Assembly: GCF_048403405.1 (NCBI RefSeq)
Contig: NZ_CP183131.1
Reading direction: 5' to 3' (one strand)
DNA from: Escherichia coli
Lineage (GTDB): Bacteria; Pseudomonadota; Gammaproteobacteria; Enterobacterales; Enterobacteriaceae
DNA length: 64,000 nt
A program made the translations under genes and the position numbers. Every line of letters begins with the position of its first letter. The first letter of the stretch is position 1. The notes beneath the pieces were generated by a model. It had not been told where the DNA came from. It was given only the letters and a program-made list of their open reading frames with translations, and did not search any database. Positions 1,656-64,000 of this stretch are shown in pieces.

Positions 1656-1739
1656 ATCTTTTCTCCTGGTAGGGAAGGAGATAGTCCACCCCTGGAGGGA
1701 ATGGCTATCCCCTCCGGGTCGGTTTAGTTGAAGTGACTA

Positions 1740-3017
1740 TTAGAAGAAATAGTCGCCATCGTCGTCAGTTTTAGGCAGCTCCTGGTTGAGAGGCTCCTCT
1801 GTCGGCTCCTCTTGGACAGGCTCTTGCTCTACCGGAGTTTCCTCAGGCAAAACCGGCTCATCCTCAACATCAACGCGCTCTTCTCGAACCACATCACCGG
1901 CATTGGATTCATCTTCCGATTCACCCTCGCCTCGTTCTGCAAAACTCTTGAAGAAGTTGTCGATGTCTTCATCCAGGTCAACAGCGTTACCACCGCTGTT
2001 AGTCTGTTCTGATTGAACAGATTCAGTACCACCTACCTGTTGCTGCTTGGTTTCGCCACCCTCTGTTGCAGGGATAAGCTCACCGGCTTTATCGCTTTTC
2101 TGTTCGGCCTTTTCATCTTTAGAACGGTCCCCCATCTGGGCTCCCGAACCGCCAATGTCATTAGCCATGCCCTCTACAGTAATCGAGCCATTGGCATACT
2201 GCTCGATGCGGTCCCTCTCGCTCATGATCAGCACTGCGGCCACGACCTGATAAAAGAAAGGCGCAACGATGTTTCGGCCATCGGCATGTTGCTCGTATCC
2301 CCGGAGGGTTTGGTCGAGCAGCTTGACCAGAGGGTTAAAAGCGCTGTTCAGGAAGCTAAGCCCATCCACCTTGTCGCGGATGTTACGGAGTGTCTGCCGA
2401 GTAGTGACCGCACATTGGTCTCGACCGGCCAAACGTTCCATATAGAACTTATTCGCTTCCTGAACCACTTCGGAGATGAGATCGTCACCCAAGCGCTCAA
2501 CCTTGCGGTTAAGGCGTTTGGCGTTGGCCTCATCTTCGTTCACAGGCTGGATCATGAACACCTGGTACTCAAAGCCAATCCGCTCCTCGACCGTTTCCTT
2601 TGGAAGGGCTCCGGCACGGATAGCTCGTTCATACTCAGGGTTCTCCTGACACCATTCATCCACGGCTTTGTTGTAACCTTTGATGAAATCCTGTTTCAGT
2701 TGGTTAAACTGAAAGTTTATGTCATTCAGCTTGTTACAGATTTCATCGGTCTTGCTGACGGGTACGGCAAATCCGTTCATGAACGGCATACCGAATTTCA
2801 GCAGGAGGCGACGAGTTTCTGTTTTCAGGCGATGAAAGCCTTTCAGCTTAGCCGGATCACAGATCTTCTTACTTCCCAGTTGAGCTACTTTCTCAGGTGG
2901 AATTTCACCACCCTCGCCCAGCTTGAGATCAGATGCAGACAAACGGGTTTGTCCACTCCAGATGTCAAAGTCTACGTGGATAACACAGAGGCTTTGTAGA
3001 TGGTTCACTTTAGTCAT
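1740..3017 (-). CDS. hypothetical protein with acidic C-terminal region ending DDDGDYFF
   Basis: ORF-track frame 1740..3029 uses a TTG; first ATG at ~3017 has GGAG 7-8 nt upstream. No recognisable catalytic motif. Confidence 0.6.
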   Translation of the reverse strand: MTKVNHLQSLCVIHVDFDIWSGQTRLSASDLKLGEGGEIPPEKVAQLGSKKICDPAKLKGFHRLKTETRRLLLKFGMPFMNGFAVPVSKTDEICNKLNDINFQFNQLKQDFIKGYNKAVDEWCQENPEYERAIRAGALPKETVEERIGFEYQVFMIQPVNEDEANAKRLNRKVERLGDDLISEVVQEANKFYMERLAGRDQCAVTTRQTLRNIRDKVDGLSFLNSAFNPLVKLLDQTLRGYEQHADGRNIVAPFFYQVVAAVLIMSERDRIEQYANGSITVEGMANDIGGSGAQMGDRSKDEKAEQKSDKAGELIPATEGGETKQQQVGGTESVQSEQTNSGGNAVDLDEDIDNFFKSFAERGEGESEDESNAGDVVREERVDVEDEPVLPEETPVEQEPVQEEPTEEPLNQELPKTDDDGDYFF

Positions 3018-3039
3018 GATGCACTCCAAAAAGTTGGGG

Positions 3040-56255: not shown

Positions 56256-57453
<1,198 letters not shown>

Positions 57454-57919
57454 GCCTGTGGGAGGAAAATAAAGTGTCATCCTAACTACAGGACCCTGCA
57501 ACGTAGCAATTCCTGCAAAAATCCATTTAAAACAATGACTTATTTCAATTCTGCCATCTGCAAGCGTTTTGTGGGGATGGAGGCCGGAATCATTAAAGTA
57601 TCATCCTAATTTTCGCTCAACCTTGGAAAATGCTGAGAATCGTAAAAATAAAGTTTCATCCTTTCCGCTACTAGTTCAAGGCTTTCTTCCGGCCGCCGGC
57701 AACAACGCTGCTTGGCTGAGGCGATCCACTTGCGCTACCGCTCACTGATCAGATCGAACTTGAACTCGACGAGCAGCCAACCATCAGGCCGAGCGTGATC
57801 GCCAAAAAAAACGGATCATGCGAAATCCTTCGTTGAGTTTGGCGCGGGTTTTAGCAAATCAGCTGGCCCGCGATCCGGTTGAGAGTGATCCGAAGCGGTC
57901 CTTGACGACCGGCACAAAT

Positions 57920-59536
57920 CGGCCGATTCTGTTGAAAAAGTAGCTTTAGCGGCAGCCTGCCGATCAGGTGTGCCTGCTGTCGAAGTGGCTGCAAGCCACT
58001 TCAAGTTGCCTTCCGGCGTTTCACTGAGCGTCCTTGCTCAGGTTTAAGGGTTAATTTGAGGGTTTCTGCTCGTAGCAGGCATACCTATCCCGTCAGCGGT
58101 GGCCCTTGAGGCAAAAGCTTGGCCATGCGGCGCAGGTTCTGCACCATCGCAGCCAAGGTGAATTCGTCAGTGGCACCCGTTAGGCCACGCAGTCGTAAAC
58201 GGTCGAGTTTCATGATCCGTTTGAGGTGGGCGAAAAGCATCTCCACCTTCTTTCGTTCGCAGCGAGAGACGAGGTACTCCGGTGTCTTGGCGATGCGTCG
58301 AGCCACGTCGCGGGCAGCCTCATGGATGCTGCGGACGATCTTCCGATTCGGCGTGTTGGGGCAGCATTTCGCTTTCAACGGGCAGGTGGCGCAGTCGGTT
58401 TGGCTGGAGCGGTAAATGACGGTTTTGGCCTTAGTTACCCGCGACCTTTGCTGGGTGAAGGCGCGCCATTCACTGCGTAGCGGTTTGCCGGCTGGGCAGC
58501 GATATTCATTGGCGTCCTGACTCCAGTGAAAGTCGTTACTGGAGAGGCTGTCGTCCTTGCGCTCGGTCTTGTCCCACACCGGCACATGCGGTTCGATGTC
58601 CTTTTCTTCGACCATCCAGGCCAGCATCGGGGCGGTGCCATAAGCGGTATCGCCGATAAGGCGTTCCGGTGTGAGATCGAACTGCGCCTCGACACGCTCG
58701 ACCATCGTCCTAGTCGAATCGACTTCGGCGGTACGGTGCGCCGGGGTAGCTTCCACGTCCATGATCACACCGTGCTCAGTGTCGATCAGGTAATTCGTGG
58801 AGTAGGCAAAAAAGGCCGGGCCACCTGGCGCTGCTGTCCAACGGGACTGAGGATCAGTGAGCGAAATTTTCTTGGGAAGAGCCTCAGCCAGCGCCTCTTC
58901 ATCAAGGGCTTCGAGGTACTCGCGCACTGCGCGGCTGCTGAGCTTTGGATCGTTCCAATCGACCTCATCTCCCGCCACCCCACGTTGCCGGCTGGCATCC
59001 GCCTTAATGATGCTGGCGTCGACGGCGAAACCTTCACCCTTGACTAGGCCGGCTGCCATGCAGCGCCGCAGCACCTCATTGAATAACCAGCGGAATAGAT
59101 CGCTGTCACGAAAACGCCCATGGCGATTCTTCGAGAAGGTCGAGTGATTGGGGACTTCGTCTTCCAGACCCAACCGGCAGAACCAGCGATAGGCCAGGTT
59201 CAGGTGCACCTCTTCGCACAATCGCCGCTCGGAACGAATGCCATAGCAGTAGCCGACGACCAGCATGCGCACCATCAACTCCGGGTCAATCGAGGGACGC
59301 CCGATGGGGCTATAGAAATCTGCCAGGTAGGCACGTAGATCACTGAGATCCAAGCACTGGTCGATGCTGCGCAGGAGATGTTGGGCCGGGACGTGATCTT
59401 CCAGATTGAACGAGTAGAACAGGCGCTGCTGTCCTCCCGGTAACTGTCCCATCATGCTGTTCGCCCCCACGCTCGCTGACAAAGCAATTTTGCCAACGGC
59501 ATGGGGAGGCCGCTACTTTTTCAACAGAATCGGCCG
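57920..59536 (-). mobile_element. insertion sequence with 25-bp perfect terminal inverted repeats (IS1182/IS5-superfamily-like; possibly ISCfr1-related, name from memory)
   Basis: CGGCCGATTCTGTTGAAAAAGTAGC at ~57920 and its reverse complement at ~59512; single transposase ORF. Confidence 0.7.
58085..59482 (-). CDS. tnpA: IS transposase (DDE type)
   Basis: 465-aa ORF filling the TIR-bounded element. Confidence 0.7.
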   Translation of the reverse strand: MSASVGANSMMGQLPGGQQRLFYSFNLEDHVPAQHLLRSIDQCLDLSDLRAYLADFYSPIGRPSIDPELMVRMLVVGYCYGIRSERRLCEEVHLNLAYRWFCRLGLEDEVPNHSTFSKNRHGRFRDSDLFRWLFNEVLRRCMAAGLVKGEGFAVDASIIKADASRQRGVAGDEVDWNDPKLSSRAVREYLEALDEEALAEALPKKISLTDPQSRWTAAPGGPAFFAYSTNYLIDTEHGVIMDVEATPAHRTAEVDSTRTMVERVEAQFDLTPERLIGDTAYGTAPMLAWMVEEKDIEPHVPVWDKTERKDDSLSSNDFHWSQDANEYRCPAGKPLRSEWRAFTQQRSRVTKAKTVIYRSSQTDCATCPLKAKCCPNTPNRKIVRSIHEAARDVARRIAKTPEYLVSRCERKKVEMLFAHLKRIMKLDRLRLRGLTGATDEFTLAAMVQNLRRMAKLLPQGPPLTG

Positions 59537-59569
59537 CACACAGCCATTCGGCTCAACAGAACCCTGCCT

Positions 59570-60727
59570 TTACCCCACCAAACTCCGGAAACTCGCCCGG
59601 TAGTCCGTCGGCTTGAGATGCACATGTTGGCTGAGGTCGCCGGGTAGCGTGAACAGGCGCGGACCGTCCCGAAACTGGAACACGCGATACAGATGGAATT
59701 GATCGCCCGCCTCCTTGGAGAATTCGAGTTCGTTGTGGCTGACCAAGAAAGACGAGCCTACCCCGCCATTGGTGGTTTTCACCTCGATGAAGCGCTCATG
59801 GGCGTCCTCTTCGAACGACAGGATGTCGAACCCCGCACCGTCTCCCTGGGTGTCGGACACCCAATCCAGCCGCTGAAAAAGCTCTGGGTGGCCGAGCTCG
59901 GTCAGGCGTTGCTGTTCGTAGCCAATCACCCACTGCTCCCCTGCCCGGCCCAGCTTGCGGTTGGCTTCATCGCGAGCGGCATAATCGAACTTTCGCGGTA
60001 GGCGTTGCCGTAGAGATGCCGGGGTACGCACAAGCACTTCACGGGCGGGTGGTTCTACCAAAGCCGCTCGGTAGGTTTTGTCACCCGGAAGTTTTACCTC
60101 CTCCAGGGCATCGACAAGAGCGCCGACCGTCTGCTGATGTTCCAGAACGTAGGCGTGTACGGATTTACGCAGCAGCAGTTGGCTGTTGCCGCGTGGCTTG
60201 TAGCCGTTGATATAGGGCAGGCCCAGGGCATCGAGTACGGCGCTAATGTTCTGGTGCTTGAGCTCGACTGAAGACTTGCTGCGACCGTTCAGCAGTTGGC
60301 GCAGTGCCTGGTTGTGCTCGGACTTGTGGTACGGCTCCCCAGCCGCCTCGGCACGCAGCATGTCGAAATAGTCTTCGACCGTGGCCAGGACCTCTTCTTC
60401 GGACCAGTCTTCGCCGATGCGAATGATGCGAAACCCGAGCCGCGTCAGCGCCGGAACGACGGTCGTCTCGCCACCGGAGAAGCTGTCAGCAGTGAGCGGG
60501 CCCTGCTCGGGAAATTGCTTGCCGAAGGCCACACCGGCGATGGCCTTGGAATCGCAATCGGTGCCGGTCTTCGGATCACGTACCAGGAAGTCGCGGGACT
60601 TGCCGTAGCCGTGGCGCGCCAGGAATTTCGTGCGGCCCAGTTGCACGAACTCATCGATGGCAGCCTGCACGGCGGCGGGGCTTCGAAGCTGGGAGAGTTG
60701 AGACACAGGGTCCTTCCTTACTGTCAT
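59570..60727 (-). CDS. DUF3883-like (NOV C-terminal, restriction-endonuclease-fold) domain protein
   Basis: C-terminal region WVIGYEQQRL...GFDILSFEEDAHERFIEVKTT...FHLYRVFQF resembles DUF3883 (recalled); start set at ATG giving MTVRKDP; GC-rich. Confidence 0.5.
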   Translation of the reverse strand: MTVRKDPVSQLSQLRSPAAVQAAIDEFVQLGRTKFLARHGYGKSRDFLVRDPKTGTDCDSKAIAGVAFGKQFPEQGPLTADSFSGGETTVVPALTRLGFRIIRIGEDWSEEEVLATVEDYFDMLRAEAAGEPYHKSEHNQALRQLLNGRSKSSVELKHQNISAVLDALGLPYINGYKPRGNSQLLLRKSVHAYVLEHQQTVGALVDALEEVKLPGDKTYRAALVEPPAREVLVRTPASLRQRLPRKFDYAARDEANRKLGRAGEQWVIGYEQQRLTELGHPELFQRLDWVSDTQGDGAGFDILSFEEDAHERFIEVKTTNGGVGSSFLVSHNELEFSKEAGDQFHLYRVFQFRDGPRLFTLPGDLSQHVHLKPTDYRASFRSLVG

Positions 60728-61288
60728 GGTGTGCCGGGAACCGCCGAGCCACGAGATTATGAGTAGCCCCTGAACAGAAACGTCACGATAAAAGCCGTGA
60801 ACGCCACCAGGCCCATTAAATCCCTTGCGTATTTGCAGCCCGTGCTGTCCAAACCTGTACCAGGTCCGATCAACACGCTCCAACCATTGAGGTACGAAAA
60901 CACCGCCTGACCGAACAAAAAATGCGTGATAGCCGCCGCAGCCATGACGCCGGAATCGTCAGACAGGCTGTAGCTGTTGACCATTGCCCTGTACGCCTGC
61001 ATCTGAAATGGCTATTGCCCTGATGGGAGCCGGCTTTTCAGCCACCGACACCAGCGATGCCGTCAATATTCTTTACCCGATAACCATGACCGTACAAGCT
61101 AACAAGGCCTGGCAAGCCAGCGGACTTAAAAAGTCTTTTTTTCTACCATCCCACAAAAAAGTTCGTGGTGGAGAAAAGATAAGCTATGCAAGGCTTTAGG
61201 AGACGTGGTTTTTCAGGATGACGAAGAACGATTCGGCGCTAGGTGCAACATAGGTGCATCGCACGAGCGCTAGGAACGGCGAAAAAAG

Positions 61289-61587
61289 GCGGACGTGGCG
61301 AAATCGGTAGACGCAGCAGACTTTAAAATTGGAGTGCCCGCGGGGAAATCCGCGGAGTAGAACCGCTCAAAGTCGGGGAACGCTAACGGGCAATACCCTA
61401 AGCCAATCCCGAGCCAAGCCCCTTCGGGGGAAGGTGTAGAGACTGGACGGGCGGCGCCTAAAGCCTTCGGGCAATGGCGAAGGGACAGTCCAGACCACGA
61501 ACGTCATCAGACGGCGGCGAAAGTCGAGGTGGTACGAAAATCTGCTTCTCTGTGAGAGTACGGGTTCGAGTCCCGTCGTCCGCACCA
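61289..61587 (+). tRNA. tRNA-Leu(UAA) gene interrupted in the anticodon loop by a ~213-nt group I intron
   Basis: 5' exon GCGGACGTGGCGAAATCGGTAGACGCAGCAGACTT; 3' exon AAAATCTGC + long variable arm + T-arm ACGGGTTCGAGTCCCGT + CGTCCGCACCA; intron ends in G and carries group I core-like GTGTAGAGACTGGACGG / ACAGTCCAGACC. Confidence 0.7.
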
Positions 61588-61680
61588 CAAAGCCAAACAT
61601 CCCTGCGATGATCGACCTCTGGGCGTTTGGTCGTGAGCCCGCCACCCTCGCGCTACGCTTTGCGCAGGCGTCGAAGGCGA

Positions 61681-62223
61681 TCAGGTGCGCCCATCGATTC
61701 CGTCGAGCACCATCGCTGCGAGTTCATCGCTGGTGTGTGCACCACTATCGAGAACACGGGTTGTGCATGGAAGCCGTTCCCTTGCGGCCAAGCATCGGGC
61801 GACATTCGCTAATCGCCACTCTCGAATCTCCGCATTTCGATTCGGGTCAGGATGCATGGTCTGGTTCGCGATCCGGTGACGCAATAGGTCCTCGTTGAGC
61901 GTCAGAAAGATGTGCAGCAGCTGATCGTCGATCCGCCTTACCCCGTCGAGTATCTCAGTCAGATAGTCCGGGTGCACGAGCGTCATTGGGATGATGATGT
62001 CCTGCGAGTAATTCCTTCGAATCTCCCTGACCGCCGCGATCGTAAGTCCCCTCCACAAGGGGAGATCCTGATAGTCTCCGCTCGCTGGCATGGGGACCGT
62101 TTCTTTCACCACGAACCCGATTTCCTCGGGGTCAAAGATCAGCGATTTGGAACGCCGATCGCGCAGCCGCTTAGCGAGCGTCGTCTTTCCGGCGCCGAAA
62201 GGTCCGTTGATCCAGATTATCAT
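61681..62223 (-). CDS. tmrB: TmrB-like P-loop ATPase (tunicamycin resistance protein family)
   Basis: N-terminus MIIWINGPFGAGKTTLAKRL; adjacent to aac(3)-II. Confidence 0.8.
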   Translation of the reverse strand: MIIWINGPFGAGKTTLAKRLRDRRSKSLIFDPEEIGFVVKETVPMPASGDYQDLPLWRGLTIAAVREIRRNYSQDIIIPMTLVHPDYLTEILDGVRRIDDQLLHIFLTLNEDLLRHRIANQTMHPDPNRNAEIREWRLANVARCLAARERLPCTTRVLDSGAHTSDELAAMVLDGIDGRT

Positions 62224-62235
62224 TGTCGACGGCCT

Positions 62236-63096
62236 CTAACCTGAAGGCTCGCAAGAGCGCTCGACGGCCTCGTGCGGAGGCACGATCGGAGTGGTTCCGA
62301 AATGCTTCTCAAGATAGGTGACGCCGAACGTCACGATGTCCTGCGCGTCGAACAGGTAGCACTGAGCAAAGCCCACGACACCTTCTCGATGGCGACCGAG
62401 CTTCACGTAAGCATTTGCTATAGTTTCAACCGCATCCGGCTTTCCTTCGATAGCAAAGCAATCGAGAATGCCGTTTGAATCGTAATCCGATGCCGTTTTC
62501 CAGGCGACTTCACCGTCTCTTCCAAGCATCGGCATCTCATACGTCACCCACCGTTTGTTGGGGATATCGGCAACCGCCTCGGCGTAGTGCAATGCGGTAA
62601 CGGAGTTTAGCGGCGCACCCAACAGCAGGGCCTTCCCGCCAAGGCGAACGAACCGCTCGACGGGCGATCCTTCCCCCAAGGCGTGACCGAGTTCGTGAGG
62701 CTCCGTCAGCGTTTCAGCCAGCGGACCAACCGCGACCATCGATGCATCGGGGTGCGCGCTGCGCCGCGCGCCGGGGGCTTGAACCAGAAATTGATTCAGC
62801 AGGCCGAACCCACGGTAAGTCCCGGCTGTTGCGGGATCGAACGGCAGCCAGGTACGGCGGGCTTCGTCATCCAGCCGAGCGCCATTCAGAGTCTCCTCGT
62901 AGGGTGATCGGTCCCACGACGCGTATCCCATCACAGTGCCAGTCGGCCCAACCGCGGAGCGTAACGCGGCAACGACCGTCTCCGCTCCTCCTTCGACCGG
63001 ACCAATCGCTTTAAGTGAGGCATGCACCATCAAGAGGTCACCGGTTTGGACTCCGAGTTTTTGAAGCGCCTCCGTTATTGCCTTCCGCGTATGCAT
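62236..63096 (-). CDS. aac(3)-IId: aminoglycoside 3-N-acetyltransferase AAC(3)-II (IIa/IId/IIe group)
   Basis: Protein recognised from MHTRKAITEALQKLGVQTGDLLMVHASLKAIGPVEGGAETVV...; start set at MHTRK. Confidence 0.9.
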   Translation of the reverse strand: MHTRKAITEALQKLGVQTGDLLMVHASLKAIGPVEGGAETVVAALRSAVGPTGTVMGYASWDRSPYEETLNGARLDDEARRTWLPFDPATAGTYRGFGLLNQFLVQAPGARRSAHPDASMVAVGPLAETLTEPHELGHALGEGSPVERFVRLGGKALLLGAPLNSVTALHYAEAVADIPNKRWVTYEMPMLGRDGEVAWKTASDYDSNGILDCFAIEGKPDAVETIANAYVKLGRHREGVVGFAQCYLFDAQDIVTFGVTYLEKHFGTTPIVPPHEAVERSCEPSG

Positions 63097-63120
63097 CGCG
63101 ATATCTCCTCTAAACTGCAA

Positions 63121-63262
63121 AACACTATACGGGGTCTGACGCTCAGTGGAACGAAAACTCACGTTAAGGGATTTTGGTCATGAGATTATCAAAAAGGATC
63201 TTCACCTAGATCCTTTTAAATTAAAAATGAAGTTTTAAATCAATCTAAAGTATATATGAGTA
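63121..63262 (-). mobile_element. second Tn2/Tn3 end fragment (IRR + ~100 bp), direct repeat of 56256..56396, cut by IS26
   Basis: Same IR and adjacent sequence as downstream of blaTEM; diverges into IS26 IRL. Confidence 0.8.
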
Positions 63263-63265
63263 AAC

Positions 63266-64000
63266 GGCACTGTTGCAAATAGTCGGTGGTGATAAACTTA
63301 TCATCCCCTTTTGCTGATGGAGCTGCACATGAACCCATTCAAAGGCCGGCATTTTCAGCGTGACATCATTCTGTGGGCCGTACGCTGGTACTGCAAATAC
63401 GGCATCAGTTACCGTGAGCTGCAGGAGATGCTGGCTGAACGCGGAGTGAATGTCGATCACTCCACGATTTACCGCTGGGTTCAGCGTTATGCGCCTGAAA
63501 TGGAAAAACGGCTGCGCTGGTACTGGCGTAACCCTTCCGATCTTTGCCCGTGGCACATGGATGAAACCTACGTGAAGGTCAATGGCCGCTGGGCGTATCT
63601 GTACCGGGCCGTCGACAGCCGGGGCCGCACTGTCGATTTTTATCTCTCCTCCCGTCGTAACAGCAAAGCTGCATACCGGTTTCTGGGTAAAATCCTCAAC
63701 AACGTGAAGAAGTGGCAGATCCCGCGATTCATCAACACGGATAAAGCGCCCGCCTATGGTCGCGCGCTTGCTCTGCTCAAACGCGAAGGCCGGTGCCCGT
63801 CTGACGTTGAACACCGACAGATTAAGTACCGGAACAACGTGATTGAATGCGATCATGGCAAACTGAAACGGATAATCGGCGCCACGCTGGGATTTAAATC
63901 CATGAAGACGGCTTACGCCACCATCAAAGGTATTGAGGTGATGCGTGCACTACGCAAAGGCCAGGCCTCAGCATTTTATTATGGTGATCCCCTGGGCGAA
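63266..64000 (+). mobile_element. IS26 (left end, continues beyond window)
   Basis: GGCACTGTTGCAAA terminal repeat followed by tnp26 ORF. Confidence 0.9.
63319..64000 (+). CDS. tnpA: IS26 transposase Tnp26 (3' end beyond window)
   Basis: Translation MNPFKGRHFQRDIILWAVRWYCKYGISYRELQEM... matches Tnp26; no stop within window. Confidence 0.9.

Follow-up and report, generated by a model that had tools for sequence, protein, structure and literature searches.

Organization of the locus

The window, by which we mean the whole 64-kb stretch of DNA analysed here, closes with a resistance module in which a blaTEM-1-bearing remnant of Tn2, a short segment holding three repeats, the insertion sequence ISCfr1 and an aac(3)-IId block follow one another and are cut off by IS26. 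The features considered are as follows.

56257-57456, minus strand: Tn2 remnant with the blaTEM-1 promoter region and the final 10 bp of tnpR, abutting the Tn7-like terminus exactly
56257-56294: 38-bp IRR of Tn2
56404-57264, minus strand: blaTEM-1, annotated as TEM-1 in pCTX-M3
57457-57919, plus strand: 463-bp segment of the first-pass annotation, assigned here to the left-end module of the Tn6411 lineage
57457-57464, plus strand: terminal 8 bp of the Tn6411 left end, TGTGGGAG; matches in other plasmids begin exactly here, with unrelated flanks
57465-57486, plus strand: predicted TnsB-binding site L1, GAAAATAAAGTGTCATCCTAAC, holding the first AAAGTGTCATCCT (PMC11232968 S2 Table; block conserved with respect to the Klebsiella element)
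57589-57610, plus strand: predicted TnsB-binding site L2, ATCATTAAAGTATCATCCTAAT (PMC11232968 S2 Table; conserved with respect to the Klebsiella element)
57644-57665, plus strand: predicted TnsB-binding site L3, AAAAATAAAGTTTCATCCTTTC (PMC11232968 S2 Table; conserved with respect to the Klebsiella element)
57920-59536, minus strand: ISCfr1 (IS1182 family), bounded by perfect 25-nt inverted repeats and encoding its transposase on the minus strand
59537-63130, minus strand: rest of the Tn6411 left arm, comprising a DUF3883 gene, two small ORFs, a tmrB-like AAA ATPase and aac(3)-IId, and stopping at TATAC
63131-63265, plus strand: second Tn2 IRR with 97 further bp, a perfect copy of 56257-56391 truncated by IS26
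63266-64000, plus strand: IS26, running past the window end (100% match to the IS26 copies of Acinetobacter pittii plasmid pAB17H194-1, locus L015; also annotated in pCTX-M3)

The first-pass annotation had described an orphan segment of 467 bp at 57454-57919, situated between a Tn2 fragment and an insertion sequence. This placement was correct, the insertion sequence being ISCfr1, as was the right border, whilst the start moves to 57457 and the length to 463 bp. Tn2 sequence had been said to stop about 190 bp upstream of blaTEM, and the distance proved to be 192 bp, with Tn2 ending at 57456. The three repeats reported at approximately 57471, 57595 and 57650 are exact: AAAGTNTCATCCT has precisely three matches in the 64-kb window, at 57471-57483, 57595-57607 and 57650-57662, all on the plus strand, against a chance expectation of 0.01 matches (mean of dinucleotide-preserving shuffles), and three matches occurred in 0 of 100 shuffles. 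The repeat unit around AAAGTNTCATCCT really extends over approximately 18-22 nt (repeat families D1 and D2). All three copies are direct, lack dyad symmetry, sit within an AT-rich stretch and are irregularly spaced (124 and 55 bp); counted from the tip at 57457, their offsets are 15, 139 and 194, with AAAGTNTCATCC as the centre of each.

Relationship of the segment to Tn6411

When the segment was compared with plasmids, as the first-pass annotation had advised, it matched Tn6411, a Tn7-like transposon of Pseudomonas aeruginosa and Acinetobacter described as carrying a 'truncated aacC2-tmrB region' (PMC7096625, PMC11232968), with the repeats falling on its predicted TnsB sites. Positions 57456-63130 of the window aligned with Tn6411 in p201330-IMP (NZ_MN961671.1) at 99.95% identity over 5676 bp, from the outermost base of the element (locus L011, position 605/606). 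The first 240 bp are identical, the match begins at 57457 with TGTGGGAGGAAAATAAAGTGTCATCC, and ISCfr1 occupies the same position in both. A more sensitive search with a slightly wider query recovered several plasmids of Acinetobacter, Pseudomonas and E. coli in which the match likewise starts exactly at 57457 (TGTGGG...). As the flanks in these plasmids are unrelated and not Tn2, 57457 is a true boundary of the element.

The S2 Table of PMC11232968 (2024) lists TGTGGGAGGAAAATAAAGTGTCATCC as the terminal repeat of Tn6411 and gives, as sequence annotations, TnsB-binding sites at positions 2-21, 126-145 and 181-200, all of which overlap the window's three repeats. Tn6411 is a known element, and the identity of the repeats is already in print as sequence annotation alone. 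We are highly confident that 57457-57919 is the left terminus (the equivalent of Tn7-L) of Tn6411, a close Tn7 relative with TnsA, TnsB, TnsC, TnsD and TnsE, standing in the window as a relic. This assignment draws on the observed identity with Tn6411, on the architecture of the ends, on the duplications that flank complete copies and on sites that are conserved throughout the family; the repeats are predicted TnsB-binding sites of Tn6411, with binding by TnsB suggested by homology to Tn7 and by that conservation. Among the origins first proposed for the segment, 'transposon end' was the one borne out, in the form of the terminal TGT of a Tn7-family transposon at 57457 followed by an array of predicted TnsB sites. 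Neither is the origin unknown, as had been stated, since this Tn6411 left terminus is 100% identical in at least 641 PLSDB plasmids, pCTX-M3 included, spanning many genera and Inc groups. The term orphan is wrong for the sequence yet fair for its state in the window, where both borders are breakpoints and the partner end and transposition genes are gone.

In p201330-IMP, the complete element opens directly after CCTAC with TGTGGGAGGAAAATAAAGTGTCATCCTAAC and closes with GCATCCCACA directly before a second CCTAC. Reading inward, it carries ISCfr1, the DUF3883 gene, tmrB, aac(3)-IId, about 20 more cargo genes, In992 and tnsE-tnsD-tnsC-tnsB-tnsA. Its right end, adjoining tnsA, is TGTGGGATGCAAATAAAGTTTCATCC and holds the same motif three times in inverted orientation with a 20-bp period (motif starts at offsets 15, 35 and 55; 20-bp sites tile 10-69). 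Pfam searches of the five Tns proteins returned both TnsA domains, Mu-transpos_C, AAA_22/TniB, TniQ with TnsD, and TnsE_C, whilst an NCBIfam search of these proteins gave no useful names. TnsB matched the Tn7 TnsB structure 7PIK over its full length (E=2.7e-184) and TnsA matched 1F1Z (E=3.7e-63). A 5-bp target duplication surrounds elements bearing precisely this left end at each of four independent insertion sites: CCTAC in p201330-IMP, CCACA in pXM8-2, GTTGC in an E. coli IncC plasmid and TTGAT, the last inferred from two related Acinetobacter plasmids by joining the left flank in pAP43, which carries a left-arm fragment and no complete element, to the right flank in pWM98B. The record of pMKPA34-2, considered as a Tn6411 relative with another left arm, has no left end of any kind. 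Tn6411 also has a second, inverted copy of ISCfr1 that is 94.6% identical (p201330-IMP, L011 21700-23324).

Positions 57457-63130 of the window thus resemble the left arm of Tn6411 in the 26-bp terminal repeat, the three annotated TnsB sites, ISCfr1, the DUF3883 gene, tmrB and aac(3)-IId, but they keep 5.7 kb of an element of approximately 37.5 kb, with the other cargo, tnsABCDE and the right end missing. Whereas Tn6411 carries In992/blaIMP-1, the arm in the window is bounded by Tn2 on both sides and by IS26.

Comparison with Tn7 and survey of the family

The Tn7 reference was a 14,067-bp copy at glmS recovered from the E. coli chromosome NZ_CP033762.1, and the rules for Tn7 ends (a terminal TGT/8-bp end, with spaced left sites and overlapping right sites) are given in PMC9308760. 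The window end and Tn6411 share with prototypic Tn7 the terminal TGTGGGNG, a first site approximately 9-10 bp from the tip and three spaced direct sites at the left, and complete copies of Tn6411 further share a 5-bp target duplication and closely packed sites by tnsA at the right; 22 of the 30 terminal bases of Tn7-R are the same as in the window end. The two differ in detail. Tn7 ends start with TGTGGGCG and have the site core ACAAAATAGTTGGGAAC, whereas the window end starts with TGTGGGAG and has the core TAAAGTNTCATCC. The left-end spacings of 64 and 54 bp in Tn7 compare with 124 and 55 bp in Tn6411 and the window, and the right end of Tn7 has four overlapping 22-bp sites where that of Tn6411 has three abutting 20-bp sites.

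To survey the family, TGTGGGNNGNAAATAAAGNNTCATCC was scanned in one genome per species, yielding 63 loci from environmental Gammaproteobacteria and 60 usable ends. Half of these (30/60) were right-type, with offsets of 14, 34 and 54, and a further 20 were left-type with spaced sites, so that the dichotomy was found in 50 of the 60 ends. The 55-bp spacing between L2 and L3 recurred in 12 of the 20 left-type ends, two of which had the exact offsets of the window.

The sensitive search further detected approximately 70 plasmids with an 80-90% identical copy of the part of the segment that holds the second and third repeats, the diverged copies being located on one border of the heat-resistance island (tLST/LHR). 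In Klebsiella pneumoniae OW848965.1 the edge of the island is TGTGGGATGCAAATAAAGTTTCATCCTAA, followed by two further copies of the motif. About 28 kb away, annotated tnsE, tnsC, tnsB and tnsA genes precede an inverted end, TGTGGGATGCAAATAAAGGTTCATCC, in which three copies of the motif recur with a 20-bp period. GGAAT borders the transposon on either side, and the surrounding oxidoreductase gene is split. The two ends, the tns genes and the GGAAT duplication together constitute the anatomy of a Tn7-like transposon. This IncFIB transposon is like Tn6411 in its nearly identical right end, tnsABC-D-E layout and 5-bp duplication, and its homologous left end has the three sites in the same order with the same 55-bp distance from L2 to L3; it differs in its cargo (clpK, shsP, htpX and degP, not aac(3)-IId), in the distance from L1 to L2 (145 bp versus 124 bp in the window) and in that homology to the window ends after approximately 215 bp. 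When its left end was aligned with that of Tn6411, the three sites emerged as conserved blocks amid diverged sequence. As a separate observation, the heat-resistance island itself (clpK, shsP, htpX, degP and others) is the cargo of this complete 28-kb sister of Tn6411, inserted in an rclA-like oxidoreductase gene (L006 11843 to L007 17717, about 178752-206716 of the record).

The 463-bp module and its border with ISCfr1

The same 463-bp module was found in Pseudomonas mendocina EF27 and in a marine Halioglobus MAG (96-99.6% identity, same site offsets) with other cargo, and its first approximately 215 bp are common to the Klebsiella sister element. The 463 bp is a discrete unit, the conserved left-end module of this Tn7-like lineage. 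Past the equivalent of 57919, EF27 and the Halioglobus MAG share 18 bases (CGGCCAAAAGCGG...) that are displaced by ISCfr1 in the window, and then continue into unrelated cargo; in neither continuation was there a match to the right flank of the window's ISCfr1. No target duplication of ISCfr1 was present at 57919/57920 and 59536/59537, a joined-flank query found no PLSDB record in which the two flanks are contiguous, as in an allele free of the insertion sequence, and no convincing ORF disrupted by ISCfr1 was detected. Because the flanks are non-contiguous in relatives free of ISCfr1 and a target duplication is lacking, ISCfr1 is no simple insertion but marks a breakpoint, a joint produced by deletion or recombination, and the left-end module and the block from DUF3883 to aac(3)-IId were therefore joined secondarily at ISCfr1. 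Given this secondary join, present-day Tn6411 need not be the original donor.

The left-end module of P. mendocina EF27 also contains an insertion of approximately 1.3 kb (L060, about 1739-3036) between the equivalents of window positions 57802 and 57819, with an 18-bp overlap duplicated at its borders.

Junctions with Tn2 and direction of transfer

The segment is carried by 649 PLSDB plasmids and by 183 of 5426 complete E. coli genomes (3.4%), chromosomes included, and is left unannotated in the plasmids and genomes that carry it. It belongs to one of the most widespread aminoglycoside/beta-lactam resistance modules, known as the 'aacC2-tmrB region' of pEl1573 and pCTX-M3; the window carries this module, with the segment 100% identical to that of pCTX-M3. 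In pCTX-M3 the Tn2/Tn6411 module lies near repA in an IncL/M backbone and here it lies near strB, indicating that it has moved between backbones as a unit. At 56256/56257, the outer Tn2 IRR is inserted approximately 270 bp downstream of strB in a sul2-strA-strB cluster.

Two junctions delimit the Tn6411 arm. At 57456/57457, the extreme base of the Tn7-like end abuts DNA from within Tn2; across 1200 bp this Tn2 remnant shows 99.3% identity to a complete Tn3-family element of pAB17H194-1, and it stops 10 bp inside tnpR. At 63130/63131, the arm breaks off within Tn6411, at TATAC, and is followed directly by the outer extremity of a Tn2 IRR. Both junctions were presumably made by transposases. The TATAC site upstream of aac(3)-II (window 63126-63130) is occupied in the window and empty in Tn6411; in A. 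pittii pAB17H194-1 (L015 11092-16068) a complete Tn3-family element carrying blaTEM-2 sits at TATAC with a target duplication. In that plasmid the context is aac(3)-IIe bounded by ISKpn12, and at the empty site of Tn6411 (L011 6276-6330) a 25-bp unit, TATACCTATCGAGATATCACTCTAC, is tandemly duplicated. In the window, a 135-bp identical direct repeat (56257-56391 and 63131-63265) brackets blaTEM-1, the tnpR remnant and the Tn6411 arm, an arrangement suggestive either of homologous recombination that integrated a circular intermediate or of a Tn2 located inside the Tn7-like element.

The simplest history behind these junctions has three steps. Tn2 would have inserted upstream of aac(3)-IId within a Tn6411-like element; the Tn6411-like element would then have transposed into tnpR of another Tn2, or have undergone an intramolecular event; and IS26 would finally have deleted everything beyond 135 bp of the inner Tn2. 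We infer this order of events, rather than observe it, because the reciprocal junction was not found. The predicted joint of the right end, AGGCC and Tn2 (GCATCCCACA+AGGCC+CTTTCGTC) had 0 occurrences in 100,044 representative genomes, and none was convincing among the PLSDB matches listed, the strongest of which stop at the transposon tip; one PLSDB record covering at least 80% of the query is not among the matches listed.

On this evidence, the common aac(3)-IId-tmrB module of Enterobacterales probably descends from a Tn6411-like element that transposed into Tn2, the reverse of the published account. According to PMC7096625 and PMC11232968, Tn2 gave rise to the aacC2-tmrB region, which Tn6411 acquired afterwards. 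On that view the aacC2-tmrB-ISCfr1 block, the 463 bp included, would be a replacement inside Tn2, and the segment would be DNA of the Tn2 module turned into a transposon end secondarily. The literature treats the region as a Tn2 derivative, whereas its ISCfr1-proximal 463 bp is here a Tn7-family terminus. The published direction has in its favour, beyond being stated in both papers, that the Tn2-linked form is far commoner, with the segment in 649 plasmids versus approximately 20 exact Tn6411 right ends among the matches listed, which also include the diverged right end of the Klebsiella sister element. Nevertheless, we consider it very unlikely. The 463 bp occurs, with the same terminus, in P. 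mendocina and the marine MAG in the absence of Tn2, ISCfr1 and aac(3)-IId, and over its first 215 bp it shares homology with the corresponding left end in the sister Tn7-like element. The border with Tn2 falls on the exact terminal base of the Tn7-like end. Furthermore, TATAC is empty in Tn6411 and occupied in both the window and the aac(3)-IIe relative, and an empty site is not derivable from an occupied one by simple steps.

Descent from a Tn6411-like element bears on annotation and history, and leaves known mechanisms unchanged. What is modestly new is that the terminus is embedded in the common enterobacterial aac(3)-IId module, an embedding that implies a Tn7-family origin of the module. 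The junction earlier called a 'replacement' within Tn2 is accounted for once the segment is recognised as a Tn7-family terminus, which also indicates Tn7-like elements of the Pseudomonas/Acinetobacter type as the route taken by aac(3)-IId into enterobacterial plasmids.

Relic state of the end and proposed mechanism

Beyond the three repeats, the 64-kb window yielded neither another copy of the motif nor an inverted end, and no tns genes accompany the window fragment, which ends at 63130; TnsA, TnsB, TnsC and a target selector are all present in complete Tn6411 and absent from the fragment. Without an inverted partner end and tns genes, the end in the window is a relic and not a functional member of the family, and two Tn7 left ends together likewise do not support transposition (PMC9308760). 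As the window copy has no right end, the target duplication is known for complete copies only.

By homology to Tn7, TnsB bound to the three spaced left sites of the complete element would pair with TnsB bound to the three contiguous right sites, and TnsA/TnsB would cut and join at the TGT...ACA tips of the element, on the left at the terminal 8 bp, TGTGGGAG, in cut-and-paste transposition that generates a 5-bp target duplication. The target would be chosen by TnsC with either TnsD (at glmS; PMC11232968) or TnsE. In this way, the transposase of a Tn6411-like element may have joined that element, or its left arm, to Tn2 at the 3' end of tnpR. The right end and every tns gene would afterwards have been lost through IS26 and other events, and the remainder, blaTEM-1 - left end - ISCfr1 - aac(3)-IId, would travel as a passenger module of plasmids.

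It is conceivable, although we think it improbable, that the stranded left end still acts in trans, either recruiting TnsB and so conferring target immunity or pairing with a right end to form hybrid transposons. If the former were true, hundreds of multiresistance plasmids would be immune to incoming Tn6411 or to the heat-resistance Tn7-like element; if the latter, the stranded end and a nearby right end would make new hybrid transposons moving blaTEM-1 or aac(3)-IId.

Iteron and resolution-site readings of the repeats

Two other functions had been raised for the repeats in the first-pass annotation, and both were rejected on context and architecture. That the segment is the remnant of a plasmid replication origin, with the repeats as its iterons, has a negligible probability. 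The repeats, three in number, direct, 13-20 bp long and set in AT-rich DNA, do have the look of iterons, and in pCTX-M3 the module lies approximately 2 kb from the IncL/M repA, but the window copy adjoins strAB instead, so that the proximity to repA is incidental. The spacing of 124 and 55 bp is irregular, no rep gene moves with the segment, which resides in chromosomes and in plasmids of many Inc types, and each homologue found forms one extremity of a Tn7-like element that has inverted copies at its other extremity and is flanked by 5-bp duplications. We attach equally little weight to a resolution (res) or other site-specific recombination site: the segment does replace the part of Tn2 that held res, and repeated protein-binding sites are typical of res, yet there is no adjacent resolvase gene (the sole recombinase gene of Tn6411 is approximately 26 kb off), the repeats are direct only and have no dyad symmetry, and the same motif recurs inverted at the far end of elements of 14-37 kb bounded by target duplications.

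Putative miniature elements in Pseudomonas

Gene-less elements of approximately 327 bp belonging to the Tn6411 family were also observed, composed solely of two ends, a left-type one with three sites and a right-type one with two. They look like miniature, non-autonomous Tn7-like elements, of which a quick literature search found no description. Copies were located in Pseudomonas oleovorans DSM 1045 (L075 662-988, L076 4188-4515 and L077 8834-9160) and in P. alcaligenes NBRC 14159 (L036 6614-6941 and L037 3549-3876), with several per genome, each having its own 5-bp duplication (ACCGC, CCCGC). In the MAG Pseudomonas sp. Ga0074129, more than 10 contigs break at ends of the kind found in these elements.
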